Assembly: GCA_963743885.1 (NCBI GenBank)
Contig: CAVURJ010000002.1
Coordinates: 36,721-100,720 of the forward strand
Length of the DNA stretch: 64,000 nt
Direction of reading: 5' to 3'
DNA from: Candidatus Moraniibacteriota bacterium
GTDB lineage: Bacteria > Patescibacteriota > Minisyncoccia > Moranbacterales > UBA1568
The translations under genes and the position numbers were made by a program. Of this stretch, positions 23,167 through 53,600 are shown piece after piece. The notes beneath the pieces were generated by a model. The model was not told the DNA's origin and searched no databases. It worked only from the letters and a program-made list of their open reading frames with translations. Within the stretch, counting starts at the first letter, position 1, and each line of letters begins with the position of its first letter.

Positions 23167-23242
23167 AACTGGATTTGGTGGACAGATACGGAAAATCGCT
23201 CTATAATGGTCAAATGTTAGTAAATTAATCAGTTTTAATTAA

Positions 23243-26149: not shown

Positions 26150-26214
26150 ATTAACGGGTTAACGCGTTAACGAGTTGTATTTCTAACACGTTAACTCGCA
26201 AAACTCGTTAACTG
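26150..26214. repeat. GTTAACG-module palindromic repeat (atpA|atpG junction)
   Basis: attaacgGGTTAACGCGTTAACGAGTTg ... cacGTTAACtcgcaaaactcGTTAACtgg. Confidence 0.6.
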
Positions 26215-27220: not shown

Positions 27221-27745
27221 ATGAAGAAGACAGCAAAAAATCTGGTAGTGATTCCGAGTGAGCGCATCATCAAGCGTATTTTCTGGCTGCGTGATGAGAA
27301 GGTAATGCTGGATTCTGATTTGGCAGAAATGTATGAGGTAGAAACGAAAGTTTTCAATCAGGCCGTGAAACGCAATATCGATCGATTCCCGAAAGACTTT
27401 ATGTTTCAGCTTACCGTGCAAGAGTATTCAATCTTGAAGTCACAAATTGTGACCTCAAGTTGGGGAGGAAAAAGAAAACTCCCATATGCTTTTACTGAGC
27501 CGGGTGTGGCGATGCTTTCGAGCGTACTCAAGAGCAAGCGGGCAGTTGCAGTGAATATCCAGATTATCCGGACATTTGTCGAGCTGAGAAAGATGCTCGT
27601 AACACATGAGGCGCTTAGGAAGAAGATCGAAGCAATGGAGCAGAAATATGACAAGCGGTTCAGAGCGGTATTTGATGTATTGCGTCAGCTCCTGAAGGAA
27701 GAGACGGAGCCGAAGAAGAAGATAGGGTTTGCTGCGAAGAAGTGA
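27221..27745 (+). CDS. ORF6N-domain protein (KilA-N-related DNA-binding family), inserted in the atp operon
   Basis: 'EKVMLDSDLAEMYEVETKVFNQAVKRNIDRFPKDFMFQLT...SQIVTSSWGGKRKLPYAFTEPGVAMLSSVLKS' matches the ORF6N domain pattern. No good SD. Confidence 0.65.
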   Translation: MKKTAKNLVVIPSERIIKRIFWLRDEKVMLDSDLAEMYEVETKVFNQAVKRNIDRFPKDFMFQLTVQEYSILKSQIVTSSWGGKRKLPYAFTEPGVAMLSSVLKSKRAVAVNIQIIRTFVELRKMLVTHEALRKKIEAMEQKYDKRFRAVFDVLRQLLKEETEPKKKIGFAAKK

Positions 27746-27830
27746 AGCTGGAATTTTGAATCTGGAATCTTGGAGTTCAAAACCAAAATTCTAGATTCTA
27801 AATTCGAGATTCGGATTTAGGAAGTTGTTT
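27745..27830. repeat. AT-rich heptad tandem-repeat tract
   Basis: ggaattttgaatctggaatcttgg...aattctagattctaaattcgagattcggatttagg. 7-bp period, same unit family as 24527-24650. Confidence 0.55.
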
Positions 27831-29665: not shown

Positions 29666-29687
29666 TTACTGTTGTTTGGTTAACGAG

Positions 29688-29740
29688 TTTGGCGAGTTAA
29701 CGAGTTGAAAAACCCGTGAACCCGTTAACGCGTTAACGGA
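29688..29740. repeat. GTTAACG-module palindromic repeat (atpD|atpC junction)
   Basis: gGTTAACGAGTTtggcgaGTTAACGAGTTgaaaaacccgtgaacccGTTAACGCGTTAACGg. Confidence 0.6.
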
Positions 29741-31238: not shown

Positions 31239-34145
31239 ATGGCTCAAAAAAACTACAATCCGAAGGCAATCGAGGCGAAGTGGCAGAAGTATTGGGAGAA
31301 GCATGGTACGTATCGTCAGTATAGCCGCAAGCAGGGCTTCTATGTGCTCGATATGTTCCCGTATCCGTCGGGAGCAGGACTCCATGTCGGTCATCCGCGC
31401 GGATATATTGCGACGGATGTTGTGGCGCGCTTCAAGCAGCTTGAGGGTTGCGGTGTGCTCCATCCGATGGGATGGGACGCGTTCGGGTTGCCAGCTGAAC
31501 AGTATGCTCTCAAGAACAAGGTGCATCCGTCGATCGCGACCAAGAAGAATGTCGCGACGTTCAAGAAGCAATTGGAGAAGATCGGTCTCACCTATGATTG
31601 GGAGCGCGAGATCAATACGACCGATCCGGAATATTATAAGTGGACACAGTGGATCTTCCTAGAGATGTGGAAGCGGGGCTTGGCATACGAATCGAACGAA
31701 CCGATCAATTGGTGCCCGTCATGCAAGACCGGTCTTGCCAATGAGGATTTGGAGCAGGGGAAGTGCGAGCGTTGCGGGACAGTCGTCGAGAAGCGGCCAC
31801 TCCGCCAGTGGGTGCTTGCCATGACCAAGTATGCTGACCGGTTGCTCAAGGATCTCGATAGTAAGGACCTTGATTGGAGCGAGTCGATCAAGGAACAGCA
31901 GCGTAATTGGATCGGACGGAGCGAAGGTGCTGAGGTTGCCTTTCCGATTGTCGGGACCGAAGAAGAGCTCCGCGTGTATACAACGCGCGTCGATACGATT
32001 TTCGGGTGTACGTACGTCGTGGTCGCGCCTGAGCATTCTTTGCTGAAGAATCAAGAATCAAGAATCAAGAATCAAGAGGAAGTCAGAAAGTATATAAAGA
32101 AGGCGGCGAACAAGTCTGATCTTGAGAGGACGGAACTGGCGAAAGAGAAGACCGGCGTGAAGCTCGAGGGTGTCGAGGCGATCAACCCATTCGATGGGGC
32201 GAAGGTCCCGGTGTATGTCGCGGACTATGTGCTCGGTTCCTACGGTACAGGCGCGGTGATGGCGGTCCCGGCGCATGATGAGCGCGATTTTGAGTTTGCG
32301 AAGAAATATAGTTTGCCGATCAAGCTTTCAGTGGCGCCGTTTTTTTCTGACACAGAAGGTAAAGATGCTGTACGAAAAGACAAGCCGACGGTGCGACGGC
32401 GGACCGCTTATGCGCTCGTCAAGCATTGGAGCGAGGACAAATATATTTGCCTGGATTGGGAGAAATTCGGATGGCATTCGGGGATCATCGGTGGCATCGA
32501 AGAAGGCGAGGACCCGATTGTGGCGGCTTCTCGTGAAATTATAGAAGAGACTGGCTATCAGAATCCGGTATTTGTAAAGTATATCGGGGAAGCGATGCAC
32601 AATTATTTTTATGCCGCTCACAAGGAAGTGAACCGTTATGCGGATGGTGTTGGGATGCTGTTTCAATTGAAGAACGGTAAATGGAACGAGCCAGACAAAG
32701 AAGAAACAAAAAACCATAAGGCAGTCTGGATTTCTGGCGACGAGATGACATCATTCCTTACACTGAGAAACTTCCAATATATGTGGGAAGTCTTGAAAAA
32801 GGGAGAGGAGTGCTATACAGAAGACGGGGTACTCATCGATTCTGGAGAGTTCACTGGGCTTGCGTCGGCAGAGGCAAGGAAGAAGATGACAGCATGGCTC
32901 TCGAAGGAGAAACTTGGCAAGAAGAAGGTGAACTACAAGATGCGTGATTGGACGTTTAGTCGGCAGCGCTATTGGGGCGAGCCGATCCCGCTCGTACATT
33001 GTGAGTTCTGTGGCATCGTGCCGGTGCCGGAGAAAGACCTTCCGCTTCTTCTTCCAAAGGTGAAGTCGTATGAGCCGACCGATACGGGCGAATCGCCGCT
33101 TGCGGCTATCTCGAAGTGGGTGAATACCAAGTGCCCGCAGTGCAAGGGGCCGGCCAAGCGCGAGACCAATACCATGCCGCAGTGGGCGGGTTCGAGCTGG
33201 TACTATCTTCGCTATATCGATCCGAAGAACAAGAAGGCTCTTGTCGACAAGAAGAAGGAGCAGAAGATGATGCCGGTTGATCTCTATGTCGGCGGGACGG
33301 AGCATGCGACAAGACACCTTCTCTATGCACGTTTTTGGCACAAGTTCCTCTATGATATCAAGATCGTCTCTGGCAAGGAGCCGTTCAAGAAGCTCGTGAA
33401 CCAGGGGCTTATCGTGGCATCTGATGGCCGTAAGATGAGCAAGCGCTGGGGCAACGTGGTCAATCCAGACGATATGATCGCAGAGTTCGGGGCGGACGCA
33501 TTCCGTACCTATGAGATGTTCATGGGGCCTTTTACACAGTCGATTGCCTGGAATACCGAAGGTCTTGTCGGGACGCGGCGGTTCCTTGAGAAAGTCTGGA
33601 GACTTTCTCAGAAAACAGTTAACAGTCAACAATCAACGGGGAATAAGAATATTGAGACGTTGCTTCATAAGACAATCAAGAGCGTGACAGAAGATATTGA
33701 AGGATTCAAGTTCAATACAGCGATTAGTTCGCTCATGATTCTTGTGAACGCCCTCGAAAAAGAGCCAGAAATATCACTCATCACTTATCGGACATCTCTT
33801 ATCCTCTTAAGTCCGTTCGCCCCGCATATCGCGGAAGAGCTGTGGTCGCAATTGAAGAATCACCCTTCGACAGGCTCAGGGTCATCCAAAACGGAAGAGA
33901 AATCAATATTCCTTGCTGAGTGGCCGAAGTGGGACAAGAAGAAAATCGTTGAGGAGACGGTGAATGTCGCCGTACAGGTGAATGGTAAGGTGCGCGCTGT
34001 GATCGCGGTCGCCGCTGGAAGCGATGAGGCTGCTGTGAAGGCGCAGGCGCTCGCCGATGCGAACGTACAGACACATATCGCCGGTAAGAACGTCCGTAAG
34101 GTAATCTACGTTCCTGGACGAATCTTCAATATCGTTGTGGGATAA
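31239..34145 (+). CDS. leuS: Leucyl-tRNA synthetase carrying an in-frame inserted NUDIX hydrolase domain
   Basis: 'PYPSGAGLHVGHPRGY' HIGH region, 'TTRVDTIFGCTYVVVAPEH' editing-domain T-rich region, 'KMSKRWGNVV' KMSKS. About 163 aa inserted between 'YSLPIKLSV' and 'DGVLIDSGEFTGL' contains a perfect Nudix box 'GGIEEGEDPIVAASREIIEETGY'. Confidence 0.9.
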   Translation: MAQKNYNPKAIEAKWQKYWEKHGTYRQYSRKQGFYVLDMFPYPSGAGLHVGHPRGYIATDVVARFKQLEGCGVLHPMGWDAFGLPAEQYALKNKVHPSIATKKNVATFKKQLEKIGLTYDWEREINTTDPEYYKWTQWIFLEMWKRGLAYESNEPINWCPSCKTGLANEDLEQGKCERCGTVVEKRPLRQWVLAMTKYADRLLKDLDSKDLDWSESIKEQQRNWIGRSEGAEVAFPIVGTEEELRVYTTRVDTIFGCTYVVVAPEHSLLKNQESRIKNQEEVRKYIKKAANKSDLERTELAKEKTGVKLEGVEAINPFDGAKVPVYVADYVLGSYGTGAVMAVPAHDERDFEFAKKYSLPIKLSVAPFFSDTEGKDAVRKDKPTVRRRTAYALVKHWSEDKYICLDWEKFGWHSGIIGGIEEGEDPIVAASREIIEETGYQNPVFVKYIGEAMHNYFYAAHKEVNRYADGVGMLFQLKNGKWNEPDKEETKNHKAVWISGDEMTSFLTLRNFQYMWEVLKKGEECYTEDGVLIDSGEFTGLASAEARKKMTAWLSKEKLGKKKVNYKMRDWTFSRQRYWGEPIPLVHCEFCGIVPVPEKDLPLLLPKVKSYEPTDTGESPLAAISKWVNTKCPQCKGPAKRETNTMPQWAGSSWYYLRYIDPKNKKALVDKKKEQKMMPVDLYVGGTEHATRHLLYARFWHKFLYDIKIVSGKEPFKKLVNQGLIVASDGRKMSKRWGNVVNPDDMIAEFGADAFRTYEMFMGPFTQSIAWNTEGLVGTRRFLEKVWRLSQKTVNSQQSTGNKNIETLLHKTIKSVTEDIEGFKFNTAISSLMILVNALEKEPEISLITYRTSLILLSPFAPHIAEELWSQLKNHPSTGSGSSKTEEKSIFLAEWPKWDKKKIVEETVNVAVQVNGKVRAVIAVAAGSDEAAVKAQALADANVQTHIAGKNVRKVIYVPGRIFNIVVG

Positions 34146-35525: not shown

Positions 35526-36197
35526 ATGAAAACGACTATTCCCCAGTATCTCCCGCTTGATAAGCCGCTCATTATCTTTGACCTCGAGACGACCGGACTG
35601 GCTGCTGGCGAGGATAAAATCATTGAGCTTGCGTATGAGAAGATTCTGCCGGATGGCGAGATCATTGCATACTGCCAGCGCATCAACCCAGGGCGGCCGA
35701 TTCCTCCGGAGTCGAGCCAGGTGAACGGCATCTACGACAAGGATGTTGCTCTCGCTCCGAGCTTTGCGACGCTCTGCTATGAGCTCTGGAATATGTTCGA
35801 TGGTTCCGATGTTGGCGGCTTCAATGTAACCGGATTTGATCTTCCGTTCTTGCGCGGCGAGTTCGCGACGGTCGGGAAGAACTTCGATTTTTCGCAGAAG
35901 AAGGTGCTTGATGCGAAGATCCTCTATCACAAGATGTCGGCGCGTGACATGTTCGCGCCGAGGAACCTCAGTGCGGCGTACAAGCTCTATTGTGGCAAGG
36001 AACATGTGACAGCGCATACGGGTGCTGGTGACGTGCGGGTGACGGTCGAGATCCTGGAGAAGCAGCTTGAGAAGTATCCGGAGTTCCGCAGCTGGGATTA
36101 CATCGCCGAGCTCCATGGCAACAAGAAGCTCCTCGAGTCGGCTAAGACGGAGCATGCGCCTTTGGTGGAGAAGGGAATGCTAGGCACGTTGTTTTGA
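35526..36197 (+). CDS. DnaQ-like 3'-5' exonuclease (DEDDh family)
   Basis: Exo I 'LIIFDLETTGL', Exo II 'GFNVTGFDLPFL', Exo III 'HTGAGDVRVTVEIL'. Start chosen at ATG 35526, 16 aa before Exo I. The ORF track's 35472 is an alternative. Confidence 0.75.
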   Translation: MKTTIPQYLPLDKPLIIFDLETTGLAAGEDKIIELAYEKILPDGEIIAYCQRINPGRPIPPESSQVNGIYDKDVALAPSFATLCYELWNMFDGSDVGGFNVTGFDLPFLRGEFATVGKNFDFSQKKVLDAKILYHKMSARDMFAPRNLSAAYKLYCGKEHVTAHTGAGDVRVTVEILEKQLEKYPEFRSWDYIAELHGNKKLLESAKTEHAPLVEKGMLGTLF

Positions 36198-36198
36198 A

Positions 36199-36321
36199 GT
36201 TCAAAATTCAAAATAACAAGCTCCAAATAAATTCAAAAACATAATTTTCAAAACGTGAGATCTTATTTTGATTTTGATATTATGATTTATTTGGAAATTG
36301 AGATTTTGAATTTGTAATTTG
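36199..36321. repeat. Interspersed inverted-repeat element, copy D
   Basis: GTTCAAAATTCAAAATAACAAGCTCCAAATAAATTC ... GATTTATTTGGAAATTGAGATTTTGAATTTGTAATTTG. Ends 9 nt before the uppP ATG. Confidence 0.8.
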
Positions 36322-38120: not shown

Positions 38121-38140
38121 GACTCGAATTGTTTCTTTTG

Positions 38141-38223
38141 TGGGCGAGGAGAGACTTGAACTCTCACGCTGTTGCCAGCATTGGATTTTGAGTCCAACGT
38201 GTCTACCATTCCACCACTCGCCC
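38141..38223 (-). tRNA. tRNA-Leu (anticodon CAA), class II with long variable arm; CCA not encoded
   Basis: Minus-strand read GGGCGAG..GTGG..TTGGA-CTCAAAA-TCCAA-[16-nt variable arm]-GAGAG-TTCAAGT-CTCTC-CTCGCCC-A. 7/7 acceptor stem, T-loop TTCAAGT, anticodon loop with U33 and A37. 83 nt. Confidence 0.8.
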
Positions 38224-38359: not shown

Positions 38360-38388
38360 TTGATAAGAGCCTGTCAATGGGCTATACT
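38360..38388 (+). promoter_or_regulatory. Promoter TTGATA-17-TATACT upstream of parA
   Basis: -35 38360-38365, 17-nt spacer, -10 38383-38388. Confidence 0.5.
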
Positions 38389-38497
38389 AGGGGAAGAATT
38401 ATGAATCAGGAATAGTGAATCAAGATAAAAACCATAGGTTTTTGTTTTTGGTGTATTTGTTCTTGATTCTTGATTCTAAATTCTTGATTCTTGGGAA
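38380..38497. repeat. AT-rich heptad repeat tract (AATCAAG / TTCTTGA units) upstream of parA
   Basis: gaatcaggaatagtgaatcaag ... ttcttgattcttgattctaaattcttgattcttggg. Confidence 0.55.
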
Positions 38498-39289
38498 ATG
38501 GCTAAGATAATCGGTTTCGTCAATCAGAAGGGGGGCGTCGGAAAGACGACTTCTACGATCAATGTCGCTACCTATCTCGCCGAGGCTGGCAAGAAGGTGC
38601 TTTTGGTTGACCTTGATCCACAGGGTAATGCTTCGTCTGGTCTTGGCATCGATGCTCGGGCACTCGAGAAGAATCTGTATCATGCGATGATTTTGGGGCT
38701 TCCACCGCAGGAGATTATCCTACGTACGGAGACTGAGAATCTGCATATCATTCCGGCAGCGCAGGATTTGGCTGGAGCGGAGATCGAGATGGTGCATATT
38801 GATAGCCGCGAGTTTCGATTGCATAGCGTGCTTCGACAGGTGCGCGCGTATTATGATTACATTCTTATCGATAGTCCGCCGTCGCTCGGCCTCCTTACTA
38901 TCAATGGCCTGGTCGCATCTGATGAAGTGATCATCCCGGTGCAGACGGAGTACTATGCGCTTGAAGGTCTGTCGCAGCTTTTGGGGACGATTGAGCTCGT
39001 GCGTGAGCACTTGCAGCCGAATCTCAAGATCGGTGGTGCACTGCTTACTCTGTATGACCGCCGCAATCGTTTGGCGCGCCAGGTAGTGAATGAAGTGCGG
39101 ACGCATTTTCCTGGGCCAGTGTTTGAGAACGTCGTTCCGCGTTCGGTCCGGCTCGCGGAAGCGCCGAGCTATGGCAAGTCGATTCTCGATTTTGATGCTT
39201 TTTCCAAAGGTGCCCGTGCGTACAAGGGTGTGGTGCGTGAGTTGATTGCTCGGGAAGAAGAGGATAAGAAGAAACTCAAAGTCCTTTGA
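38498..39289 (+). CDS. parA: ParA/Soj chromosome-partitioning ATPase
   Basis: Deviant Walker A 'NQKGGVGKTTSTINVA', 'LLVDLDPQGNAS'. Confidence 0.9.
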   Translation: MAKIIGFVNQKGGVGKTTSTINVATYLAEAGKKVLLVDLDPQGNASSGLGIDARALEKNLYHAMILGLPPQEIILRTETENLHIIPAAQDLAGAEIEMVHIDSREFRLHSVLRQVRAYYDYILIDSPPSLGLLTINGLVASDEVIIPVQTEYYALEGLSQLLGTIELVREHLQPNLKIGGALLTLYDRRNRLARQVVNEVRTHFPGPVFENVVPRSVRLAEAPSYGKSILDFDAFSKGARAYKGVVRELIAREEEDKKKLKVL

Positions 39290-39298
39290 GTTTCTTCG

Positions 39299-39721
39299 GA
39301 ATCAAGAATTGAGAATCATGAATCAAGATAAGAAGACAATCAAATCATTTACGGACCTTGAAGCATGGAAAGAAGGGCACAAGCTTGTTATTCTTGTATA
39401 TAAGGAAACAGAATCATTTCCGCAGAAAGAGATTTTTGCACTGACGAATCAGATGAGGAGATGTGTCGTTTCTATAACATCGAACATCGCAGAGGGTTTT
39501 AGTAGACAATCATACAAAGAAAAAGTGCAGTTTTATTCTATGGCCCTTGGGTCGTTGACTGAATTGCAGAATCAGTTGCTTATTGCGAGAGACGTCGGAT
39601 TTTTGAATAAGGAGAAGTTTAAGCAATTGGCTGATCAGAGCGTTGTTGCACATAAGATTTTGGGTGGATTAGTAAAAAAGTCGAAGGCATATCGCGATTC
39701 TTGATTTTCAATTCTTGATTC
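39299..39721 (+). mobile_element. Putative mini-cassette: four-helix-bundle gene bounded by 19-bp terminal inverted repeats, inserted between parA and parB
   Basis: Left GAATCAAGAATTGAGAATC (39299-39317). Right GATTTTCAATTCTTGATTC (39703-39721), whose revcomp matches the left at 18/19. The repeats abut the start and stop codons of the enclosed gene. Confidence 0.45.
39318..39704 (+). CDS. Four-helix-bundle protein (23S rRNA intervening-sequence protein family)
   Basis: 'FTDLEAWKEGHKLVILVYKET.SFPQKEIFALTNQMRRCVVSITSNIAEGFSRQSYKEKVQFYSMALGSLTELQNQLLIA' matches the PF05635-type pattern. Confidence 0.75.
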   Translation: MNQDKKTIKSFTDLEAWKEGHKLVILVYKETESFPQKEIFALTNQMRRCVVSITSNIAEGFSRQSYKEKVQFYSMALGSLTELQNQLLIARDVGFLNKEKFKQLADQSVVAHKILGGLVKKSKAYRDS

Positions 39722-39730
39722 TTGTATCTT

Positions 39731-40732
39731 ATGGCATCACAGCAATATGGGCTTGGCAGGGGATTGGCATCGCTCATTCCTCCGAAGAAAAATAACGAGG
39801 TGGTCAAGGCAGCACCGTTCCGGATAGAGCCGGTTTCGAGGCCGGCTGCAGCAGCTTTTCCTGATGAGAGTGCTGCTGCACCGGCTGCCGCTCCAACCGT
39901 TGCGGCATCTGTTGCTCCGGTTGCCTCTATGTCCGCTTCCGTTCCGGCTGCAGCGCAGTCTTCGTCGCGCGAGGTGCCGATTGGCGATATCGTGCCCAAC
40001 CCACACCAGCCGCGGCTCCATTTCGATGAGGCTAAGCTTGAGGAGCTTGCACAGTCCATCCGCGAGCACGGCATCCTCCAGCCGCTCGTCGTGAGCCCGC
40101 TTGAGGGCGGGAAATATGAGTTGATTGCTGGAGAGCGCCGTCTCCAAGCATCGAAGCGCGTCGGCCTTGTGATGGTCCCTGTCGTCGTGAAGGACGCCTC
40201 GGAACAGGAGAAGCTCGAGTTGGCGATTATTGAGAATATCCAGCGTCATAACCTCAACCCAATCGAAGAGGCAAAGGCATATCTCCGGCTGGTCGATGAG
40301 TTCGGTTTGCCGCAGGACGCGGTGGCCAAGAAGATGAGCAAGAGTCGGAGTGCGGTATCGAATACGATGCGGTTGCTCCATCTGCCGATCGAGATCCAGC
40401 GTGCTGTCGCGGAAGGGAAGATCAGTGAAGGCCATGCTAAGGCGCTTTTGGCTATCGAGAATCCTGAGAAGCAGCGGGCGATTTTTGATCTCATCATCAA
40501 GGAAGAGCTGACGGTCCGTGAGACAGAGACCAGAGTGCGGAGCATCTCAGTGAAGCCGCACGTGAGGAGCGCGGCGCCGATCAATCCGGATATCTTGTCG
40601 CGCGCGGAGCATCTGACGCAGGCGCTCGGTACCAAGGTGAAAATCGCTCCGTCCGGAAAGGGTGGTAGGGTTGTCATTGAGTATTATTCCCAGGAAGACC
40701 TGGATAATCTTTTCAAGCGTTTGGAAGAGTAG
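39731..40732 (+). CDS. parB: ParB/Spo0J partitioning protein
   Basis: 'GLGRGLASLIP' N-terminal box, ParB box 'LIAGERRLQASKRVGL', HTH region. ATG 39731 preferred over the TTG at 39722. Confidence 0.88.
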   Translation: MASQQYGLGRGLASLIPPKKNNEVVKAAPFRIEPVSRPAAAAFPDESAAAPAAAPTVAASVAPVASMSASVPAAAQSSSREVPIGDIVPNPHQPRLHFDEAKLEELAQSIREHGILQPLVVSPLEGGKYELIAGERRLQASKRVGLVMVPVVVKDASEQEKLELAIIENIQRHNLNPIEEAKAYLRLVDEFGLPQDAVAKKMSKSRSAVSNTMRLLHLPIEIQRAVAEGKISEGHAKALLAIENPEKQRAIFDLIIKEELTVRETETRVRSISVKPHVRSAAPINPDILSRAEHLTQALGTKVKIAPSGKGGRVVIEYYSQEDLDNLFKRLEE

Positions 40733-41653: not shown

Positions 41654-44600
41654 GTGAAAGACATGCTGTCATATGTAAGAAATAAAAACCGAAAATCATT
41701 TGCTAAACTCCTGTTCTCCGCGATAGCGGTGGGGGTCATCTGTCTAGGGTGGTACAACATACGACCTGTTTTTGCGCAGTTTGTCGACGCACAGTCAATC
41801 CAGAGAATTGGCTTGTCTGCGTCACTTTTCAACTCTGAGAACCGTATTATCACGAACGGGACCTATGAGGTTCGCTTCGCGATTTACTCCAAGGACCGTG
41901 CGGAAAGTGATGTGTATCCGTCCAATGCCGACGCTGGCAGCCGGCTCTGGGAGGAGACACAGACGGTTTCGGTGAAGAACGGCGTCTTCCGTGTTTTCCT
42001 CGGCTCGGCCAATCCGCTGCCGGAATCGCTCACGTTCAACGAGGGGGATTACTATGTCGGCATGCGGATCGGGACTGATTCTGAGATGGTGCCGCGCAAG
42101 CGTCTCGGATCAGTGCCGCGTGCTATCAACTCGCAGTACCTCGGAGGGAAGCAGGTTGGCACGGGTGCCGGCGATATCCTCACGCTCGGCAACAAGGGTA
42201 AGATCGATATCAAGCAGCTTCCGACCGGGACGGGTTCGAAGCAGCTTGTGCTCGGCAATGATTCCCGCCTCCAGGATTCACACCAACAGAATTCGGATAT
42301 CGGAACTGACTCGACCGTCTTCACGATTGGTGACGGCGCATCGCTCGCAGACAATTTCTTGCTTAACGTTTCTTCAGCCAGCAATACGCCGGCTATCCGT
42401 TTCAATGGATCGACGGGAGCATGGCAGTTTTCGAATGATGGGACGACGTTTGCGGATATTTCCTCCGGCTCAAGCGGAACCTACCTGCCACTTGCTGGCG
42501 GAACGATGACGGGTGCAATCGTTTTCGCTCCGGCACAATCGTTTGCGGACCTGATTAGTCTTGGCGCGGATACAGTCGGGAATTATCTAGCATCTGTTTC
42601 CGGCGGGAATGGCATCGTGGTTTCTGGTTCTGGTTCTGAAGGAGCAACGCCGACGGTATCGCTCAGTCTGCTTGGTTCGGCCGATGGTACCGGGGCTGCT
42701 TCTTCCAACTCCGGTCTTGAATTCCAGGGAGTGGGGTTGAGTGAGCTTACGCTGCTCCAAGGTTGTTCAAATGGGCAGGGGCTCTCATGGAATGATACGA
42801 CGAATGTTTGGGAATGCACGAGCTTTTCTGCTGGGTTGGCAGGAAGCGGGACGGCTGGGTATGCGACGTATTGGAGCGGAGCGAGTTCGCTCGGTTCGGA
42901 GCAGTATCTTTCCTCAGTCCGTGGTGGCACTGGTCTTGATGCATCGGCTGCCAGCAACGGGTCGTTGCTCATTGGCAATGGCTCCGGGTTTACCTTGAAT
43001 ACATTGGCAGGATCGGGGGGTGTGACAGTGACTAATGCTGTCGGGATAATTACTCTTGGTCTTGATGCATTGACATCTGGCACTACGGCGACGACCTATT
43101 CCAATTCCGGTCTTGAGACGACTGCGGACGGTATCAGATTGCTCGGTGGCTGTAACGATGAACAGGTGCTCGCGTGGAACGCTACTCTTGAACGATGGGT
43201 ATGTTCCAACAAGACTGGTGGCACCAGCGATTGGACGAGCACTGGTTCGTACACATATCTGACCGATGCTACGGACGACCTGGTCATCGGCGGCGCGACG
43301 ACGGATGCAGGATTTTTCTTTGATGTTTCTGCTGGGACACTTGCCTTCGAAGGGACGACAGCTGACACATATGAGACGGCCATCGGCGTAATCGATCCGA
43401 CGGCTGATAATACTATCAATTTCCCCAATGTCTCTGGTACCGTTATCACCACCGGCAACCTTTCGAGCATCACTGCTACCGGCACCATCGCTTCCGGCAC
43501 GTGGAATGGCACGACGATCGATGTAGCGCACGGCGGTACGGGCGCTGCCACTTTGAGTGATCTCATCACTCTCGGCACTCATACCGTCGGCAGCTACGTT
43601 TCGACCATCGCTGCCGGCAACGGCATCTCGACCACCGGCGCTTCCTCTGGCGAGACTATCGCTCACACGCTGTCTCTCAAGCTCCTCATCTTAGCCGACA
43701 GCACTGGCGGCACCTCATCCAATTCTGGTCTTGAATTCCAAGGAGTTGGATCGGATTCCTTAGCATTGCTCCAGGGTTGCTCGAACGGGCAGGTCCTTTC
43801 CTGGAATGAAACGACGAGCGTCTGGGAGTGCAATTCTGTTTCTGGCATGGGTGGTGTCACGGGCTCAGCTACTTCTGGTCAGGTTGCCTACTGGGACAGC
43901 TCCTCTTCCATTGCTGGCGAGAACCAGCTTGCTGTTTCGAGAGGTGGTACGGGTATAGGCTCGTACACGATTGGCGATCTCCTCTACGCTTCCGGTGCCA
44001 CGACACTTTCCAGACTTGCTGATGTTGCGACGGGCAATGTACTCATCTCTGGCGGCCTCGGTATCGCGCCATCGTGGGGCAAAGTCGATTTGACGAGCCA
44101 TGTCACTGGCACGCTTCCAGTCGCGAATGGCGGCACTGGAGCTACTTCGCTGAATGATCTCATCACGCTTTCGACGCACACTACCGGCAACTACGTTGCG
44201 AGTGTCTCGAACGGCTCCGGTATCACAGGTGGCAGTGCTGGATCAGAAGGTGCAGCACTTACCCTCGCGATTGATCTCCTTGATTCAGCCGATGGCACTG
44301 GTTCCACATCGTCCAACTCCGGCCTCGAATTCCAGGGTGCAGGATCGAACGAGCTCACCCTCATCCAGGGCTGCTCAAACAACCAGATGCTTCTTTGGAA
44401 CGACACGACCTCCACCTGGTATTGTGGATCGGTTTCAGGTGCCGGCGGTATCGATGGTACTGGCACTGCCGGTTACAGCGCCTATTGGACTGATGTTGAT
44501 ACGCTGGCGAACGAGCAGTATGTCTCGGTTGCGAGGGGAGGGACAGGTCTTTCTGGATCGACCGCCGCGAACGGTACGCTCCTTATCGGCACCGGTACCG

Positions 44601-47600
44601 GGTATGCGCTGGCGACGCTCACGCAGGGTGCGGGCATGACTATTACCAATGGATCTGGCACTATTTCGCTTGCGACGACGCTCGGCGCTTCCGTTGATCT
44701 AGCGACTGAAATCACTGGTACTTTGCCGATTGGCAATGGTGGTACTGGGGTGGCGCTGACTGATCCGAATGCTGATCGTATCATGTTCTGGGATGATTCG
44801 GCGGGCGTGGTTGCTTTTCTGACGCCGGCGGCGAATCTCTCGATCTCCGGGACAACGATCGATCTCGCAGCGTCTGTTCAGCTCGGTGCTGATGGCACGG
44901 ACGGCGTGTTTGCGCTCTACTCTGAGCAGGGCGTGACGGACTACATGACAACCTTCCAGCCCGGCACCCAGACGCAGAATGTCACATACACGCTGCCGAA
45001 CGATGACGGCGCTTCCGGCCAGGTGCTTGTCACCAATGGTACTGGTACGCTTTCGTGGTCGAGTGTTTCCGGTGCGGGTGGTGTGACCGGTACGGGGACA
45101 ACAAACTATGTCGCGTATTGGGATAGCCCGAGCTCAATCGCGGCGGAGCAGTATCTGTCGCTCTCGCGGGGTGGTACGGGGACATCGCTCACCGATCCGA
45201 ATGCTGATCAGATCATGTTCTGGGATGATTCAGCAGGCAATGTCGCATTCCTTGCGCCATCTTCGAACCTTTCGATTTCAGGAACGGGTGTTGATCTCGC
45301 ATCCGCGGTCACGATTGGAAGTTCTTTGCAACTCGGCCAGAATGGCACCGATGGCACATTGACACTCTTCTCCGAGCAGGGCGCGACTGATTATACGACG
45401 GTGTTTCAGCCCGGCACCCAGACGCAGAATGTCACATACACGCTGCCGAACGATGACGGCGCTTCCGGCCAGGTGCTTGTCACCAATGGTACTGGTACGC
45501 TTTCGTGGTCGAGTGTTTCCGGTGCGGGTGGTGTGACCGGTACGGGGACAACAAACTATGTCGCGTACTGGGATAGCCCGAGCTCAATCGCGGCGGAGCA
45601 GTATCTGTCGCCTACGCGTGGTGGTACCGGCGTGGGCACATTCACGCCGAATGGCGTTCTCTACGGCAACGGCACCGGAGCTGTCCAGGTGACGGCAGCA
45701 GGTACTTCGGCGCAGCTTCTTCTTGCGAACGGTTCCGGTGTCCCGACGTTTGTCTCGATGTCGAGCGATGCCACCATTACGAATGCTGGCGTTCTTACGA
45801 TTGCGGCTGATGCGGTTGCTCTCGGCGGAGATACCACTGGCAACTACGTCGCCTCTGTCTCTACTTCCGCGACGACCGGGCTGACGGGCGGATCGGCTGG
45901 CAGCGAAAGTGCCGCGCTTTCGCTCGCATTCGATTATACGAGCACACTCGTCGGCAATCCGAGTCTCGCTGCAGGTAGTGCCGTCTTTGGTACGACCGGT
46001 CTCATCTTCGAGGGTACGACAGCAGATGCTTTTGAGGGCCTCCTGACATTGATCGATCCGACTACTGACAATACTTGGACGCTACCGAATGTTTCGGGAA
46101 CAGTCATTACGACTGGTAATCTCTCCTCTATTACCGCTACTGGCACGATCGCTTCTGGTACGTGGAACGGTACAGTCATCGGTGCCCAGTACGGCGGCAC
46201 CGGCGCAGCGACGCTCACGCCGAATGGCGTTCTCTACGGCAACGGCACCGGAGCTGTCCAGGTGACGGCAGCAGGTACTTCGGCGCAGCTTCTTCTTGCG
46301 AACGGTTCCGGTGTCCCGACGTTTGTCTCGATGTCGAGCGATGCCACCATTACGAATGCTGGCGTTCTTACGATTGCGGCTGATGCGGTTGCTCTCGGCG
46401 GAGATACCACTGGCAACTACGTCGCCTCTGTCTCGAATGGCTCCGGCATCACGGGCGGCAGCGTCGGATCGGAAGGCGCAGCGCTGACTCTCGCAATCGA
46501 CCTCCTCGACTCGGCCGATGGCGCCGGTTCTACTAGCTCTAACTCCGGACTCGAGTTCCAGGGGGCTGGTTCCAACGAGCTCGGGCTTCTCCAAGGTTGT
46601 GCGAACAATGAGGTTCTTTCTTGGAACGACACGACTTCCGTCTGGCAGTGTGCTTCCGTTTCTGGTGTCGGTGGCGTCACAGGATCTGGTGTCTCCGGCC
46701 AGGTGGCCTACTGGGATGGCACCTCGTCCATCGCCGGAGAGAACCAGCTCAGCGTTTCACGAGGCGGCACAGGTCTCGGCACCTACGTCATCGGCGATAT
46801 CCTCTACGCTTCCGGCGCAGCCGCTCTTTCGCGATTGGCGGATGTCGCGACGGGCAATGTGCTCATCTCTGGCGGTGTCGGCATTGCTCCATCCTGGGGC
46901 AAAGTCGACCTGATGAGTCATGTCACAGGCACTCTCTCAGTTGCAAATGGCGGCACGGGCGCCACGACGCTTGCTGACCTCATCACCCTCAGCACCCACA
47001 CCACCGGCAACTACGTCGCCTCTGTCTCAAACGGCTCCGGTATCACGGGCGGCAGCGCCGGATCGGAAGGGGCGGCGCTCACGCTCGCGCTCGGTGCCCT
47101 GACGGCGGACTGGAACCAGACCGGAGCCTTCGACATCGCGCTCGGCAACGCCTCGTCTGAGCTCAAGATCATGGAATCGACCGGAGCCACCTACTACGGC
47201 ATCTTCGACGTGGGGGATCTGAGCGCTGATCGGACGCTGACGGTGCCGAATGTTTCTGGTGTTATCGCGACCGTCGATGGTGCTCAGACCTTTACCTCTG
47301 CGACGTGGAACGGTACAGTCATCGGTGCCCAGTACGGCGGCACCGGCGCAGCGACGCTCACGCCGAATGGCGTTCTCTACGGCAACGGCACCGGAGCTGT
47401 CCAGGTGACGGCAGCAGGTACTTCGGCGCAGCTTCTTCTTGCGAACGGTTCCGGTGTCCCGACGTTTGTCTCGATGTCGAGCGATGCCACCATTACGAAT
47501 GCTGGCGTTCTTACGATTGCGGCTGATGCGGTTGCTCTCGGCGGAGATACCACTGGCAACTACGTCGCCTCTGTCTCGAATGGCTCCGGCATCACGGGCG

Positions 47601-50600
47601 GCAGCGTCGGATCGGAAGGCGCAGCGCTGACTCTCGCAATCGACCTCCTCGACTCGGCCGATGGCGCCGGTTCTACTAGCTCTAACTCCGGACTCGAGTT
47701 CCAGGGGGCATCGAGTAATGAACTGACACTTCTTCAAGGTTGTTCTGATAACAATGTGTTGGCGTGGCAAGATGCATCCAATTCTTGGATCTGCACGAGC
47801 GTCGGTGGCGTGGGTGCTGGTGATATCACTGCCGTAGGCGACGCGACTACCGGTGATGCATTCACAGCTGCTGGCACCTCTGGTACATCGCTCTATTTCT
47901 ATGATGCTGATGGCCGCGGCCAGTTGACGATTGCCAATCTGACAGCTGCGCGGACGTACACGCTCCCGAATGTCTCGGGTACTATCATCACGACCGGCGA
48001 TACCGGATCTGTCACGAGTACGATGCTTGCTGACTCAACCATCGCCGAAGCCGACCTCAGCGTCACCAACGCTGCGACTGCTGGCTACATCCTCTCCTAC
48101 GATGCAGGAGGTGGCTTCACCTGGATCGCCAACACTGGCGGCACCGGATCAAGCAAGTGGACCGACTCCGGCACCATCACGTACCTGACCAGTACGACCG
48201 ATGACGTCGCCTTGGGTGGTTCAACCAGCACGGCTTCCCGCTTCTTCTTCGATGTCACTACGGGGAACCAGATCATCTTCGAAGGTACCGGTGCTGATGA
48301 TGCCAACGAATCGACATTGGTCATCGCCAATCCAACAGCAGACAACACACTCACCATCCCGAACATCACTGGTACCTTCGTCACCACTGGCGATACTGCT
48401 TCCGTCACAGGTACGATGATCACCAACGATACGGTTGTCCTTACGACTGATACCGCTGGTAACTACGTCGCCTCTGTTTCAAACGGCTCCGGTATCACCG
48501 GTGGCAACGGGGGATCGGAAGGGGCGGCGCTCACGCTCGCGCTCGGTGCCCTGACGGCGGACTGGAACCAGACCGGAGCCTTCGACATCGCGCTCAACAA
48601 CGCCTCATCTGAGCTTAAGATCATGGAATCGACCGGCGCTACCTACTACGGCATCTTCGATGTTGGCGATCTCTCATCCGACCAGACCTACTCTTTCACG
48701 ACGGGCGGCACCGTCTGGACTTCAGGCAATGACGGTACCGGTTCGACCCTCGATGCCGATACCCTCGATGGGCATAGCGCTACCTACTTCCAGACCGTTC
48801 TCGCCAACCCGGTGACCGGTACGGGCACTAATGGTTACAATGCCTACTGGAACGGCACCGGCATGCTTGGAAGCGAGCAGTATGTCGCCACCTCGAGGGG
48901 AGGCACCGGTGTTAATGGCTCCGCTGCCGCGAACGGCGCCCTCCTGATCGGCAACAGCACCGGTTACAGTCTCGCGACCCTGACTCAAGGGTCTGGCGTA
49001 ACCATCACCAACGGATCGGGCACCATCACCATCGCGAGCACGCTCGGTACGTCTGTCGACCTCGCGAGCGAAGTGACGGGCACCCTCCCGGTTGCGAACG
49101 GCGGCACCGGCGCCACGACGCTCGCTGACCTCATCACGCTTTCGACGCACACCACCGGCAACTACGTCGCAAGTATCACCAACGGTTCCGGCATCACAGG
49201 TGGCAACGGGGGATCGGAAGGAGCCGCGCTCACTCTCGCTCTCTCGGCGCTTACGGCTGACTGGAACCAGACCGGTGCCTTCGATATCGCGCTCAACAAC
49301 GCCTCATCTGAGCTTAAGATCATGGAATCGACCGGCGCTACCTACTACGGCATCTTCGATGTCGGGGATCTCGCTTCTGACCAGACCTACTCTTTCACGA
49401 CGGGCGGCACCGTCTGGACTTCAGGCAATGACGGCTCAGGCTCGACCTTGGATGCGGATACCTTGGATGGTATCTCATCTGCTTCCTTCGTCCAGACGAG
49501 CGGACTGCTCTTCACTGCGGCCGGCACTTCGGGCAGTAGCCAATCCATCAACCAGGGCGATACACTCACCATCGCGGCTGGCACCGGCATCACAACGACG
49601 GGTGGAGTGACGGATACCATCACCATCGCGAGCACGCTCGGTACGGATATCTCTTCTTCTGAGATTGTTGATGGCACGATCGCGGAAGCTGATCTCAATG
49701 CGACAAATAGTCCGACAGCGGGATATGCACTTATCTATGACGTCGGTGGCGGTTTCACATGGGCGGATACGGGAGGTATGGGCAATTCCAAATGGACCGA
49801 TGCCGGGACGTTCACGTATCTCTCTGGGACTGCAGACAATATCGTAGTCGGTGCATCTACGGAGTCTGGAGCCGCTTTTGAGGTCGATACGGTGAACACT
49901 ACAATCAAGTTGAAAGAGGGCGGTACAACCCCGACGTATTTCGGCATCTTCGATGTTGGCGATCTCTCATCCGACCAGACCTACTCTTTCACGACGGGCG
50001 GCACCGTCTGGACTTCAGGCAATGACGGCTCAGGCTCGACCTTGGATGCGGATACCTTGGATGGTATCTCATCTGCTTCCTTCGTCCAGACGAGCGGACT
50101 GCTCTTCACTGCGGCCGGCACTTCGGGCAGTAGCCAATCCATCAACCAGGGCGATACACTCACCATCGCGGCCGGTACTGGCATTACGACGACGGGTGGA
50201 GCGACGGATACCATTACCATCGCCTCGACTTTGGGTACGTCTGTCGATCTCGCGAGCGAAGTGACAGGTACGCTTCCGGTTGCAAATGGCGGCACGGGCG
50301 CCACGACGCTTGCTGACCTCATCACCCTCAGCACCCACACCACCGGCAACTACGTCGCAAGTGTTTCGAATGGCTCCGGTATCACGGGTGGTAGCGCTGG
50401 ATCGGAAGGGGCGGCGCTCACGCTCGCGCTCGGTGCCCTGACGGCGGACTGGAACCAGACCGGAGCCTTCGACATCGCGCTCAACAACGCCTCATCTGAA
50501 CTCAAGATTCTTGGCTCAGCCGGCACCTACTACGGCATCTTTGATGTGGGAGCGCTTGGATCTGACCAGACCTACTCTTTCACGACGGGCGGCACCGTCT

Positions 50601-53600
50601 GGACTTCAGGCAATGACGGCTCAGGCTCGACCTTGGATGCGGATACACTTGATGGCCACGATACTGCCTACTTCCAGACCGCACTTACCAACCCGGTGAC
50701 CGGTACCGGTACCTCTGGCCAGGTGGCCTACTGGGACGGCACTTCGTCCATCGCCGGGGAGAACCAGCTTTCAGCGAGTAGGGGTGGTACCGGTATCAAC
50801 GGAGCCACCGCTGCCAATGGCACCCTCCTCATCGGCAACGGGACAGGCTACACGCTTGCCACTCTTACTGACGGCGCCGGTATCACGGTGACGGAAGGGG
50901 CGGGCACCATTACCATCGCCTCGACTTTGGGTACGTCTGTCGATCTCGCGAGCGAAGTGACAGGTACGCTTCCGGTTGCAAATGGCGGCACGGGCGCCAC
51001 GACGCTTGCTGACCTCATCACCCTCAGCACCCACACCACCGGCAACTACGTCGCAAGTGTTTCGAATGGCTCCGGTATCACGGGTGGTAGCGCTGGATCG
51101 GAAGGGGCGGCGCTCACGCTCGCGCTCGGTGCCCTGACGGCGGACTGGAACCAGACCGGAGCCTTCGACATCGCGCTCAACAACGCCTCATCTGAACTCA
51201 AGATTCTTGGCTCAGCCGGCACCTACTACGGCATCTTTGATGTGGGAGCGCTTGGATCTGACCAGACCTACTCTTTCACGACGGGCGGCACCGTCTGGAC
51301 TTCAGGCAATGACGGCTCAGGCTCGACCTTGGATGCGGATACCTTGGATGGTATCTCATCTGCTTCCTTCGTCCAGACGAGCGGACTGCTCTTCACTGCG
51401 GCCGGCACTTCGGGCAGTAGCCAATCCATCAACCAGGGCGATACACTCACCATCGCGGCCGGTACTGGCATTACGACGACGGGTGGAGCGACGGATACGG
51501 TGACCATCGCAGCCACCCTCGGTACCGACATCGCTTCCTCCGAGATCGTCGACTCAACCATCGCCGAAGCCGACCTCAGCGTCACCAACGCTGCGACTGC
51601 TGGCTACATCCTCTCCTACGATGCAGGAGGTGGCTTCACCTGGATCGCCAACACTGGCGGCACCGGATCAAGCAAGTGGACCGACTCCGGCACCATCACG
51701 TACCTGACCAGTACGACCGATGACGTCGCCTTGGGTGGTTCAACCAGCACGGCTTCCCGCTTCTTCTTCGATGTCACTACGGGGAACCAGATCATCTTCG
51801 AAGGTACCGGTGCTGATGATGCCAACGAATCGACATTGGTCATCGCCAATCCAACAGCAGACAACACACTCACCATCCCGAACATCACTGGTACCTTCGT
51901 CACCACTGGCGATACTGCTTCCGTCACAGGTACGATGATCACCAACGATACGGTTGTCCTTACGACTGATACCGCTGGTAACTACGTCGCCTCTGTTTCA
52001 AACGGCTCCGGTATCACCGGTGGCAACGGGGGATCGGAAGGGGCGGCGCTCACGCTCGCGCTCGGTGCCCTGACGGCGGACTGGAACCAGACCGGAGCCT
52101 TCGACATCGCGCTCAACAATACCTCGTCTGAACTCAAGATTCTTGGCTCAGCCGGCACCTACTACGGCATCTTTGATGTGGGAGCGCTTGGATCTGACCA
52201 GACCTACTCTTTCACGACGGGCGGCACCGTCTGGACTTCAGGTAATGATGGCTCCGGATCGACCCTTGATGCCGACCTCTTGGACGGTCTCTCATCCGCC
52301 TCCTTCGTCCAGACGAGCGGACTGCTCTTCACCGCGGCCGGTACTTCGGGTAGTAGCCAATCCATCAACCAGGGCGATACGCTCACCATCGCGGCCGGTA
52401 CTGGCGTTACGACGACGGGCGGAGCGACGGATACCATTACCATCGCCTCGACTTTGGGCACGTCTGTCGATCTCGCGAGCGAAGTGACGGGTACGCTCCC
52501 GGTTGCAAATGGCGGCACGGGCGCCACGACGCTTGCTGACCTCATCACCCTCAGCACCCACACCACCGGCAACTACGTCGCCTCTGTCTCAAACGGCTCC
52601 GGTATCACGGGTGGTAGCGCTGGATCGGAAGGGGCGGCGCTCACTCTCGCTCTCTCGGCGCTTACGGCTGACTGGAACCAGACCGGTGCCTTCGATATCG
52701 CGCTCAACAACGCCTCATCCGAACTGAAGATTCTCGAGAGTCTCGGCGATACCTACTACGGCATCTTCGATGTTGGCGATCTCTCGGCTGATCGGACACT
52801 GACGGTACCGAATGTTTCTGGTGTTATCGCGACTCTCGATGGAAGCCAGACCTTCACGTCCGCGACGTGGAACGGCACCGCCATCGGTGCCCAGTACGGC
52901 GGCACCGGCCTCAATACGAGCGCTTCGACCGGCGTCCCGACCATTTCCTCTGGCACCTGGAGCGTCGATACCAATTATCTCTCTCTCGCTCACGGCGGTA
53001 CCAATGCTTCTCTCACCGCCAGTAACGGAGGCATCGTTTATTCTACGGCTTCAGCCCTTTCCGTCCTGGCGGCTAATGCCAACTCCGGCCTTGCTCTCGT
53101 CTCAGGCGGTGCCGGTGCTCCGACCTGGTTCGCTCCGACTGTAGGGTCTGTCATCTTCGCTGGTGCGAACGGGGCATTGTCCTCGAGCAATACGCAGTTC
53201 TTCTGGGACAATACGAACAATTACCTCGGTATCGGTGATGCTACCCCGACGAACCAGTTCGATCTCCTCTCATCGTCAGCTGCGCATAATGGCATCATCA
53301 TTACCAATACCAATGCGGGTAACTACAATCCGATCATGCAGTTCGAGTTGACGGAAAATACACCGCTCTTCACGCTCGGCATCGATGATTCCGATTCTGA
53401 CAAGTTCAAGATTACGACCGGATCGGATATTTCCGGGACCAGCCAGTTCACTATAGATTCGTCCGGGACGACCTCGATCGCCAATCTCAATCTTGGCGCG
53501 ACCACGTTCGACGCGGATGCCGGCATCGTATCGTGGATTGACATGCCAGTGACGTCGTCGGCGACGGCTGGAACGGTGGAAAGTTACACTGCCCAACTTG

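Follow-up and report, generated by a model that had tools for sequence, protein, structure and literature searches.

A PF05635 gene enclosed by inverted heptamer arrays between parA and parB in a Moraniibacteriota genome

Why should a gene of the family known from 23S rRNA intervening sequences (IVSs) lie between parA and parB? The question is raised by a 64,000-nt stretch of contig CAVURJ010000002.1 from a Candidatus Moraniibacteriota bacterium (hereafter, the window), in which parA (38498–39289; 263 amino acids; Pfam AAA_31, CbiA, and ParA) and parB (39731–40732; 333 amino acids; Pfam ParB_N, HTH_ParB, and ParB_C) are separated by a 128-amino acid open reading frame (ORF), here called HB1 (39318–39704). 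Coordinates are those of the window unless another locus is named, and genes, arms, and hairpins are on its plus strand unless stated otherwise. The start codon of parB is the ATG at 39731 rather than 39734. We propose that the segment is an IVS-type gene cassette: a PF05635/TIGR02436 gene that begins and ends, start and stop codons included, within inverted arrays of 7-nt repeats and is read from the parA promoter, with ORF and arms inherited and relocated as a unit, gained and lost at orthologous intergenic sites, and accompanied by ORF-less hairpins elsewhere. We put the probability of this reading at roughly 0.6. The locus links an unexplained protein family to unexplained bacterial repeats. 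To our knowledge, no function has been assigned to PF05635 despite thousands of members and solved structures, and the label selfish has been attached to rRNA intervening sequences for thirty years with no mobility mechanism that we are aware of. Many bacterial genomes are enriched in heptamer tandem repeats, and we know of no interacting protein in recent work on them.

HB1 and its flanking arrays

The initial annotation had assigned HB1 to the four-helix-bundle (4HB) proteins of the IVS family, and profile searches agree. The product matched PF05635 (23S_rRNA_IVP) with an E value of 1e-34 and 119.4 bits against a cutoff of 33.8, and TIGR02436 with 114.5 bits against a cutoff of 24; among solved structures, it was similar in sequence to PDB 2gsc (XCC0516; E 3e-19) and also to 2rld. 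The family motif RxxxSxxxNxxE (Lin 2006; PMC3936711) is present as ...QMRRCVVSITSNIAEG... (R48, S52, N56, and E59), and R48 and E59 are invariant in the alignment examined. Proteins of this family assemble as pentameric toroids (Lin et al. 2006, cited in PMC4990558), and a homopentameric ring is predicted for HB1 from its sequence similarity to the solved members, of which XCC0516 is a pentamer. With a dN/dS of 0.05 against its ortholog in the metagenome locus L081 (described below), the HB1 ORF is under strong purifying selection and is not simply junk.

Several other identities were considered and rejected. HB1 is not the accessory protein Avd of diversity-generating retroelements: it scored 20.6 bits against NF033474 (E 4e-4), far under the cutoff of 80, and its match to PF22296 was weak as well (E 2e-5); no reverse transcriptase and no template or variable repeats were found at the locus, where the neighbors are parA and parB. 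A known defense-system identity was discarded because neither HB1 nor the second 4HB protein of the window, HB2, matched a PADLOC anti-phage defense profile at E ≤ 0.01. An integron gene cassette, which would consist of a promoterless ORF with a single attC site downstream and lie next to intI, was set aside: HB1 has an arm at each end, the arms reach into the start and stop codons, and no integrase is adjacent. No rRNA is present at the locus, flanked as it is by parA and parB, which places HB1 outside the classical 23S rRNA insertion sites (helix 25 or 45).

Inverted repeats flush with HB1 had been described as 19 nt long; they proved to be longer. The arms at 39299–39330 and 39690–39721 span 32 nt, are 88% complementary, and enter the ORF by 13 nt at its 5' end and by 15 nt at its 3' end. 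Their local-alignment score of 23.2 compares with 8.2 ± 1.3 in 500 dinucleotide shuffles (maximum 14, z 11.3), and the 95th percentile for 500 random window positions of the same geometry was 10.6. Both arms are period-7 arrays of 4–5 units, as found with Tandem Repeats Finder (TRF) and by counting chains of GAAT. The left arm consists of the units GAATCAA, GAATTGA, GAATCAT, and GAATCAA followed by GATA, and contains the HB1 start codon (39318). The right array extends to 39724 (39690–39724; TRF period 7 at 39696–39724), consists of nnnATTC heptads, and contains the last four codons and the stop codon (39702–39704); the ATG and TGA are themselves part of the heptad arrays. The description of these flanks as terminal inverted repeats (TIRs) is not upheld, since the arms are 7-nt repeat arrays, unlike transposon-style TIRs and like the repeats of the Coxiella 23S IVS (PMC4990558).

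HB2 (61891–62250; 119 amino acids; PF05635 E 4e-22, 78.9 bits; TIGR02436 96.8 bits) had likewise been reported as bracketed by inverted matches, and these are real. An inverted-repeat search paired a left arm at 61841–61888 with right arms within 62281–62341, namely 61841–61888 with 62281–62328 (48 nt, 73%) and 61861–61884 with 62318–62341 (24 nt, 83%); in the shuffle test, the arms scored 19.6 against 8.9 ± 1.4 (z 7.5). They differ from the HB1 arms in sequence.

A skeptic might regard such repeats as chance or low-complexity artifacts of A+T-rich spacers. The HB1 arms are indeed of low complexity, and several pairing registers are possible. However, both cassettes stand far above dinucleotide shuffles, the window holds nine chains of at least three GAAT/ATTC units where 0.01 are expected, and the enrichment is at lag 7 only (see below). 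The shuffle, chain-count, and lag controls refute the artifact explanation, to which we assign practically no weight.

The parA–parB site and cassettes in other genomes

The site was compared in 60 Moranbacteria loci, 59 of which contain both genes (L019 is without parA). Every one of the closest ParB relatives in GTDB belonged to Moranbacteria, at identities of up to 94% for ParA and up to 71–75% for ParB. In all 59 loci, parA and parB are neighbors with no 4HB gene between them, confirming that the two genes are normally adjacent. Their spacer takes two main forms, one of 3–30 nt and one of 80–210 nt, the latter mostly an ORF-less hairpin whose arms in many species are tandem 7–8-nt repeats of species-specific sequence; a few spacers hold other GC-rich inverted repeats or ~50–270 nt of unclassified sequence. 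In L057, a 618-nt insert with a SET-domain-like ORF and no 4HB gene lies between parA and parB (3383–4000 of that locus), which implies that the spacer tolerates other insertions. 4HB genes do occur elsewhere near the par operon, 3' of parB in L001, L002, and L056 and 5' of parA in L047. Inverted repeats hug the gene in L001, L056, and L047, and L002 is ambiguous. Between L001 and L056, the arms are identical at 23/23 and ~35/36 bases compared with 65–70% DNA identity in the flanking housekeeping genes, and they are better conserved than the 4HB ORF.

A metagenome scan with the HB1 protein returned 80 loci at 58–87% identity, among them the orthologous parA-4HB-parB cassettes of four metagenomic relatives, in three sets: L081/L082 (4HB 87%, ParA 89%, and ParB 67% identical to the window), L161 (79%, 89%, and 64%), and L162–L164 (80%, 81%, and 64%). 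All have arms; relatives with the gene but without the repeats, which would have spoken against a cassette, were not seen at L081, L161, or L162. On a ParA+ParB tree (crude neighbor-joining, without support values), the states "4HB," "hairpin," and "empty" are interspersed. The spacing comparison proposed in the initial annotation yielded both empty sites and a scattered occupancy, and the four scattered carriers suggest repeated loss or transfer. The same scatter disfavors a single origin of the parA–parB cassette, although a tree of this kind is not proof. The L161 cassette has arms of GTAT type, and its 4HB protein is 76–79% identical to those of the other parA–parB cassettes versus 68% to that of the GTAT-type locus L121; on these protein identities, replacement of the whole cassette is not preferred as the source of the L161 arms, and a change of the arms in situ is equally likely. 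In L162 (2950–2975 of that locus) and L164, the parA stop codon lies within the left-arm heptads of the cassette (…CCGGAATCTAGAATCTAG), implying that the element replaced the last codons of the host gene.

Arm statistics were taken on the 59 non-identical metagenome loci. Almost every HB1-type gene has GAATnnn heptads before it and nnnATTC heptads after it, both running into the ORF. GAAT chains at exact 7-nt spacing had a mode of 4 (range 0–6) on both sides, compared with 0–1 at the far ends of the neighboring genes, and the ATG overlaps a GAAT core in 41/49 loci with a chain of at least two. For 88% of 68 loci, the inverted-repeat score lay above the 95th percentile of shuffles. Autocorrelation at lag 7 in the flanks of 75 loci was 0.71–0.73, against 0.40–0.45 at the other lags (4–11) and 0.40 in controls. 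Left arms match the right arms of other loci, which makes the arms common to the family. When the arm type differs between loci, the two sides differ together (GAAT/ATTC, GTAT/ATAC, or GATTTA/TAAATC), and the type tracks the protein clade; there is a GATTTA/TAAATC clade, and GTAT/ATAC occurs in L161 and L121. In L119 and L139, the downstream heptads are direct, not inverted, relative to the upstream array, and the left arm of another element may follow.

The surroundings of these genes are diverse. Their 135 neighboring proteins fall into 75 clusters and include enolase, PIF1 helicase, PD-(D/E)XK nuclease, KhpB, Fic, type IV secretion system pilin, LamG proteins, and DsbD. HB1-type genes are co-directional with the upstream neighbor in 63/67 cases and with the downstream neighbor in 62/68, at median gaps of 30 nt and 22 nt, respectively. 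It is the HB1-type arms in unrelated contexts, together with empty or hairpin-only sites in relatives, that lead us to treat gene and arms as a unit that is gained and lost. The suggestion that the 4HB gene is a small mobile module thus stands in part: there is a discrete ORF-plus-arms unit in many contexts, and there are empty sites, but transposition is conjectural and the ORF is under purifying selection.

Similar packages occur beyond the Candidate Phyla Radiation (CPR). Plasmids of cyanobacteria, Riemerella, Azospirillum, and Gemmatirosa yielded PF05635 genes in a tblastn search. All 14 inspected loci, from four other phyla, adjoin tandem arrays, of period 8 in three loci and of period 7 in the others. 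Judged by eye, ~10 of the 14 array pairs are inverted, such as AAGGTTT/AAACCTT in Riemerella, GGGTGTA/TACACCC in Calothrix and Nostoc punctiforme, TCAGGAG/CTCCTGA in Nostoc C052, GACAGAG/CTCTGTC in Azospirillum, and GGAGATA/TATCTCC in Picosynechococcus; the Pseudanabaena and Gemmatirosa copies have direct arrays. In L174 and L175 (Calothrix brevissima and Nostoc punctiforme), the 4HB gene with its GGGTGTA/TACACCC arms lies directly 3' of a tyrosine recombinase/integrase gene. Other 4HB genes with heptad arrays split cas operons (the cyanobacterial plasmids L168, L178, and L171), as in cas6-4HB-cas4 of Pseudanabaena galeata and Anabaena sp. 90 and cmr2-4HB-cmr3 of Picosynechococcus. IVS-protein (IVP) genes are known to occur inside cas loci (PMC3936711); those in cas operons, earlier read as CRISPR-associated, may be insertions of the 4HB element.

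The same distribution could be produced by a non-autonomous DNA transposon, resembling a miniature inverted-repeat transposable element (MITE) with a passenger gene, whose ends are recognized by a transposase or tyrosine recombinase encoded elsewhere. Inverted ends flush with the unit, a patchy distribution, and many contexts fit such an element, as do ORF-less derivatives (including a family of four copies within 22 kb, described below) and the two cyanobacterial plasmid copies directly 3' of an integrase gene. Against this, the 9 bases between each HB1 arm and the adjacent gene (GTTTCTTCG on the left and TTGTATCTT on the right) are unrelated, and the search for target-site duplications that the initial annotation had proposed found none outside the arms of HB1, at the HB2 cassette, or, by inspection, at the four-copy hairpin family. 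No transposase adjoins any inspected locus, and neither a transposase nor a recombinase was found at the HB1 locus. Moreover, the arms are internally repetitive, with unit number and sequence that vary between close relatives, unlike transposase-binding ends, and there is a very strong orientation bias relative to neighbors. We consider a transposon of this kind quite improbable.

ORF-less hairpins and the parA transcript

Heptad hairpins without an ORF are common in the window. The parA leader holds one (38394–38492; arms 38394–38430 and 38456–38492, with 25 nt between), whose 37-nt arms are 73% complementary and consist of the same GAATnnn/nnnATTC heptads as the HB1 cassette; its right arm is 93% identical to 39696–39724 and 93% complementary to the HB1 left arm, and the predicted RNA fold of the leader has −41.6 kcal/mol (z −5.4). 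In relatives, the leader is ~10 nt or a species-specific heptad hairpin. Leader and cassette are both of GAAT type in the window and in L162 and both of GTAT type in L161; in L081, the leader is built of TCAAAAA and the cassette of GAAT. A second family, with CAAAATT heptads, has four ORF-less spacer copies within 22 kb of the window (14388–14535, 15562–15705, 23972–24104, and 36197–36320). The last of these lies between an exonuclease-like gene and uppP, a spacer that measures 6–26 nt in L003, L009, L012, and L024 and holds a GTAT-type hairpin in L016 and L023. An intergenic inverted GAAT/ATTC heptad pair lies at 27744–27817 (TRF and GAAT chains), and an intergenic GATTTAG/TCTTAAA hairpin followed by an array of five ATTCTAA units lies at 24526–24644. 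In total, TRF reported more than 20 period-7 and six period-8 arrays, mostly intergenic inverted pairs. Heptad hairpins are thus found generically in the leaders and intergenic spacers of this genome, and for CPR biology they amount to a main constituent of the intergenic sequence in a very compact genome. The caveat that the HB1 flanks might be just such a generic tract is therefore justified for spacers and leaders at large; where there is an HB1-type gene, however, the arms travel with it.

Arrays of related kinds were also noted. One octamer family (GTTAACGR/AACYCGTT), the counterpart of the heptad hairpins, forms inverted period-8 arrays in three intergenic spacers (23096–23174, 26151–26213, and 29679–29737). 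Four period-7 arrays (ATATCGA, CATACGA, GAACAGT ×6.9, and ATCACTT) at 20151–20707 lie inside a mechanically called ORF (19926–21053), which implies that this ORF is not a gene or that arrays also occur in coding sequence. The cleanest tandem repeat in the window is a perfect (AAGAATC)4.6 array in the coding sequence of leucyl-tRNA synthetase (LeuRS; 32046–32077); the heptad is that of the HB1 arms, and it is read in frame as KNQESRIKNQE in a variable linker. It was rejected as the footprint of an element since there is no length insertion relative to the T. thermophilus LeuRS (one residue difference).

The abundance of hairpins raises the possibility that they are host "punctuation" of polycistronic transcripts, serving processing, stability, or translational insulation, and that the 4HB gene landed in one loop, in which case the arms belong to the site. 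Inverted heptad and octad pairs in many window spacers and leaders are as this predicts, and about half of the relatives have species-specific hairpins in the parA leader and the parA–parB spacer. In L003, the ORF-less spacer between parB and the downstream gene X has a right arm homologous to the HB2 right arm (score 28 versus a shuffle maximum of 15); the comparison of the left arms fell below significance (13 versus a shuffle maximum of 16). The punctuation account does not, however, explain why GAAT-type arms are kept by HB1-type genes in dozens of unrelated contexts and genomes, why arm type tracks the protein clade, why non-CPR copies in four other phyla also have arrays, or why the L001 and L056 arms are nearly identical beside such divergent flanking genes. 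We regard it as unlikely.

Returning to the cassette reading, we examined how HB1 might be expressed. A promoter-like site upstream of parA (TTGATA-17-TATACT; 38360–38388) matches 10/12 consensus positions, relatives retain the box TTGATAATCATTTGTCAATGGACTATAAT ahead of parA, and transcription is predicted to start at about 38395. With this single candidate promoter, and with nothing strongly resembling a promoter or terminator between parA, HB1, and parB, the three genes are probably co-transcribed. In the minimum free energy fold of 38394–39735, the HB1 arms pair with each other (29/32 nt; duplex −35.7 kcal/mol), and the leader hairpin forms together with a perfect 14-bp hairpin over the parA stop codon (39268–39297) that ends 1 nt before the left arm; the fold of 39260–39760 has a z of −4. 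The leader right arm could instead pair with the HB1 left arm, forming an equally stable duplex (−37.2 kcal/mol) with parA looped out. The hairpin at the parA stop is kept with different sequences in L081 (2951–2980 of that locus) and L161 (about 2945–2972), which implies compensatory changes.

A mechanism can be sketched from these predictions. The arms would pair to a ~32-bp duplex in the parA-4HB-parB transcript, hiding the 4HB start codon. By analogy with the rRNA elements, such a duplex should be long enough to serve as an RNase III substrate, and cleavage would release the 4HB RNA from the host transcript. The parA portion would then end in a 3' hairpin of its own, which could protect that end after processing, and release at the RNA level would let the element be tolerated in operons and in rRNA. 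No RNase III signature motif was found within the 64-kb window, a result that applies to this part of the genome only. For relocation, hairpin-mediated template switching or recombination would be favored over the action of a transposase. The strict 7-nt register, the conserved GAAT core, the 4–5 units per arm, and the direct-orientation exceptions suggest that the arrays may also be bound by the pentameric 4HB protein.

That last suggestion can be pressed further: the arrays may be primarily protein-binding sites, with the 4HB pentamer a sequence-specific regulator that places one subunit on each heptad and has been domesticated for control of parAB, acting on the array in the parA leader and on those flanking HB1, arm pairing being secondary. 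Avd, a 4HB relative, binds nucleic acid, and the family members with known assemblies are pentamers. A conserved 4-nt core with three variable bases in strict 7-nt register, at a mode of 4–5 units per arm, is what a binding site would look like, and the direct-orientation exceptions keep their arrays while losing the pairing. The better conservation of arms than of ORF between L001 and L056, the purifying selection on HB1, and the shared heptad type of parA leader and cassette in the window, L161, and L162 point the same way. On the other hand, heptad binding by PF05635 proteins is hypothetical, the L081 leader is of a different heptad type, simple co-inheritance would also associate arm type with protein clade, and the window has many heptad types but only two 4HB genes. 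A domesticated regulator seems doubtful to us.

The cassette reading itself faces several difficulties. ORF-less heptad hairpins far outnumber cassettes in the window, and the arms might pre-date the gene at the site. Persistence of the cassette at parA–parB across species, together with purifying selection, also fits a host function. Cleavage of the HB1 stem by RNase III is argued by analogy only, and the mismatches between arms show no excess of G:U over A:C (60 versus 67), giving no signal of pairing selected on the sense RNA. The concerted change of arms from GAAT to GTAT fits selection for pairing, but it could also come from DNA-level quasi-palindrome correction and slippage, and a plain stem needs neither a conserved core nor a 7-nt register. 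At a few loci (L119, L139, L168, and L172), the two arrays run in the same direction and are not inverted. Finally, no pair of near-identical copies at different sites was found, which, alongside the missing target-site duplications and transposase, means that movement was not caught in the act.

Other features of the window lie outside this argument. The LeuRS leader contains a non-heptad 23-nt inverted repeat (31114–31136/31218–31240; 87% complementary, 81 nt apart) that may be regulatory. A tRNA-Leu(CAA) gene on the minus strand (38140–38223) is bracketed by a 32-nt inverted repeat (38090–38121/38244–38275) whose core is the palindrome CTGCCTGCCGGCAGGCAGG; L020 has a similar motif upstream of its X-like gene. 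In L001, L003, and L007, the LamG-like gene X lies directly 3' of parB. The window has a 5212-amino acid ORF with long internal repeats (41654–57292), followed by a 1492-amino acid ORF (57324–61802) with two blocks of 225-nt tandem repeats (58471–59893 and 60248–61369), and X directly after parB in the other three implies that giant ORFs separate the two in some genomes only.

Comparison with known systems

The omega repressor of the pSM19035 partition and copy-control system binds heptad-repeat operators as a ribbon-helix-helix dimer. The likeness lies in arrays of 7-bp units, direct and inverted, before a parA-type gene; the unit sequence is different, the protein is a 4HB instead of a ribbon-helix-helix dimer, and the arrays here are not restricted to par genes. 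Correia elements of Neisseria, enterobacterial repetitive intergenic consensus (ERIC) sequences, repetitive extragenic palindromes and the mosaic elements composed of them (REP/BIME), and MITEs are small intergenic hairpin repeats that undergo co-transcription and processing, and Correia hairpins in mRNA are RNase III substrates. Like these, the ORF-less hairpins of the window are ~100–150 nt long, multi-copy, located between co-directional genes, and variably present among relatives. Unlike Correia or MITE-type repeats, they have arms that are 7-nt arrays and not unique TIRs, show no TA or other duplication, and have a protein-coding "full-length" form without a recognizable transposase. Avd shares a related four-helix-bundle fold and pentameric assembly with HB1 and gives weak profile matches, but HB1 scores far below the Avd cutoff and neighbors parA and parB.

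Intergenic heptamers have been described as GGGAATC/GGGGAYT in Xanthomonas and Nostoc (PMC4692102), as TAACTGA in Beggiatoaceae, cyanobacteria, and Bacteroidetes (PMC4679880), and at recF/recO of Nostoc (10.1101/2022.06.06.494920); such repeats are abundant and, in these reports, unexplained. In common with these heptamers, including the short tandemly repeated repetitive (STRR) sequences of heterocystous cyanobacteria, the arrays studied here have a unit of 7 and 3–6 units, are intergenic, often abut or overlap start codons, and vary in length and sequence among close relatives. The taxa concerned overlap those rich in PF05635 paralogs. The published heptamers are described without an associated gene, whereas here they form inverted pairs around, or derived from, a PF05635 gene; the 4HB/IVS protein is not mentioned in PMC4692102 or PMC4679880, nor in the sections of 10.1101/2022.06.06.494920 on heptamer repeats. 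A 4HB gene wrapped in two 7-nt arrays at 59 CPR loci and in 14/14 plasmid copies, in operons as well as rRNA, raises the thought that heptamer arrays and 4HB proteins may belong together. Tentatively, and as a conjecture with the odds against it, PF05635 pentamers would be the partners of bacterial heptamer arrays, with one subunit per 7-nt unit of RNA or DNA; a 4HB gene together with its two arrays would represent the autonomous form, from which the ORF-less arrays and hairpins of CPR bacteria, cyanobacteria (STRR), Xanthomonas, Bacteroidota, and Beggiatoaceae would derive, and the classical IVS would be its rRNA-resident form. If true, one mechanism would explain three orphan phenomena.

The closest parallel is the 23S rRNA IVS of Leptospira, Coxiella burnetii, Brucella, Xanthomonas, and CPR bacteria, whose rRNA insertions encode 23S_rRNA_IVP. 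In Coxiella, an S23p ORF is preceded by 3–4 tandem GACAGAT heptamers before its ATG, and the stem is cut by RNase III (PMC4990558). IVSs with an S23p ORF and inverted repeats in rRNA, the Coxiella heptamers, and the multi-copy nature of PF05635 were thus already known. In the open-access literature searched, we found no report that connects PF05635 genes outside rRNA with heptamer arrays; relative to that literature, it is new that non-rRNA PF05635 genes are regularly enclosed by inverted heptamer arrays across phyla, that these 4HB-array packages split operons, and that ORF-less versions populate spacers, and the idea of a link between heptamer arrays and 4HB proteins was likewise not met there. 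HB1 differs from the rRNA elements in that it lies in a protein-coding operon, in the parA–parB spacer, and not in 23S helix 25 or 45, and, unlike the decaying and probably untranslated Coxiella ORF, it is intact and under purifying selection; RNase III excision, moreover, has been shown for the rRNA elements only. The resemblances are nonetheless extensive: the protein belongs to the same family, PF05635, the ORF sits in the loop of a long stem formed by the flanking inverted repeats, tandem heptamers come just before the start codon (GACAGAT in Coxiella and GAATnnn in HB1), the element is in sense orientation within a transcribed host unit, and the distribution is sporadic, which for IVSs has been read as horizontal transfer. 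Because the Coxiella 23S IVS has the same parts (S23p ORF, heptamers, and stem), the HB1 cassette is best described as an IVS-type element outside rRNA.

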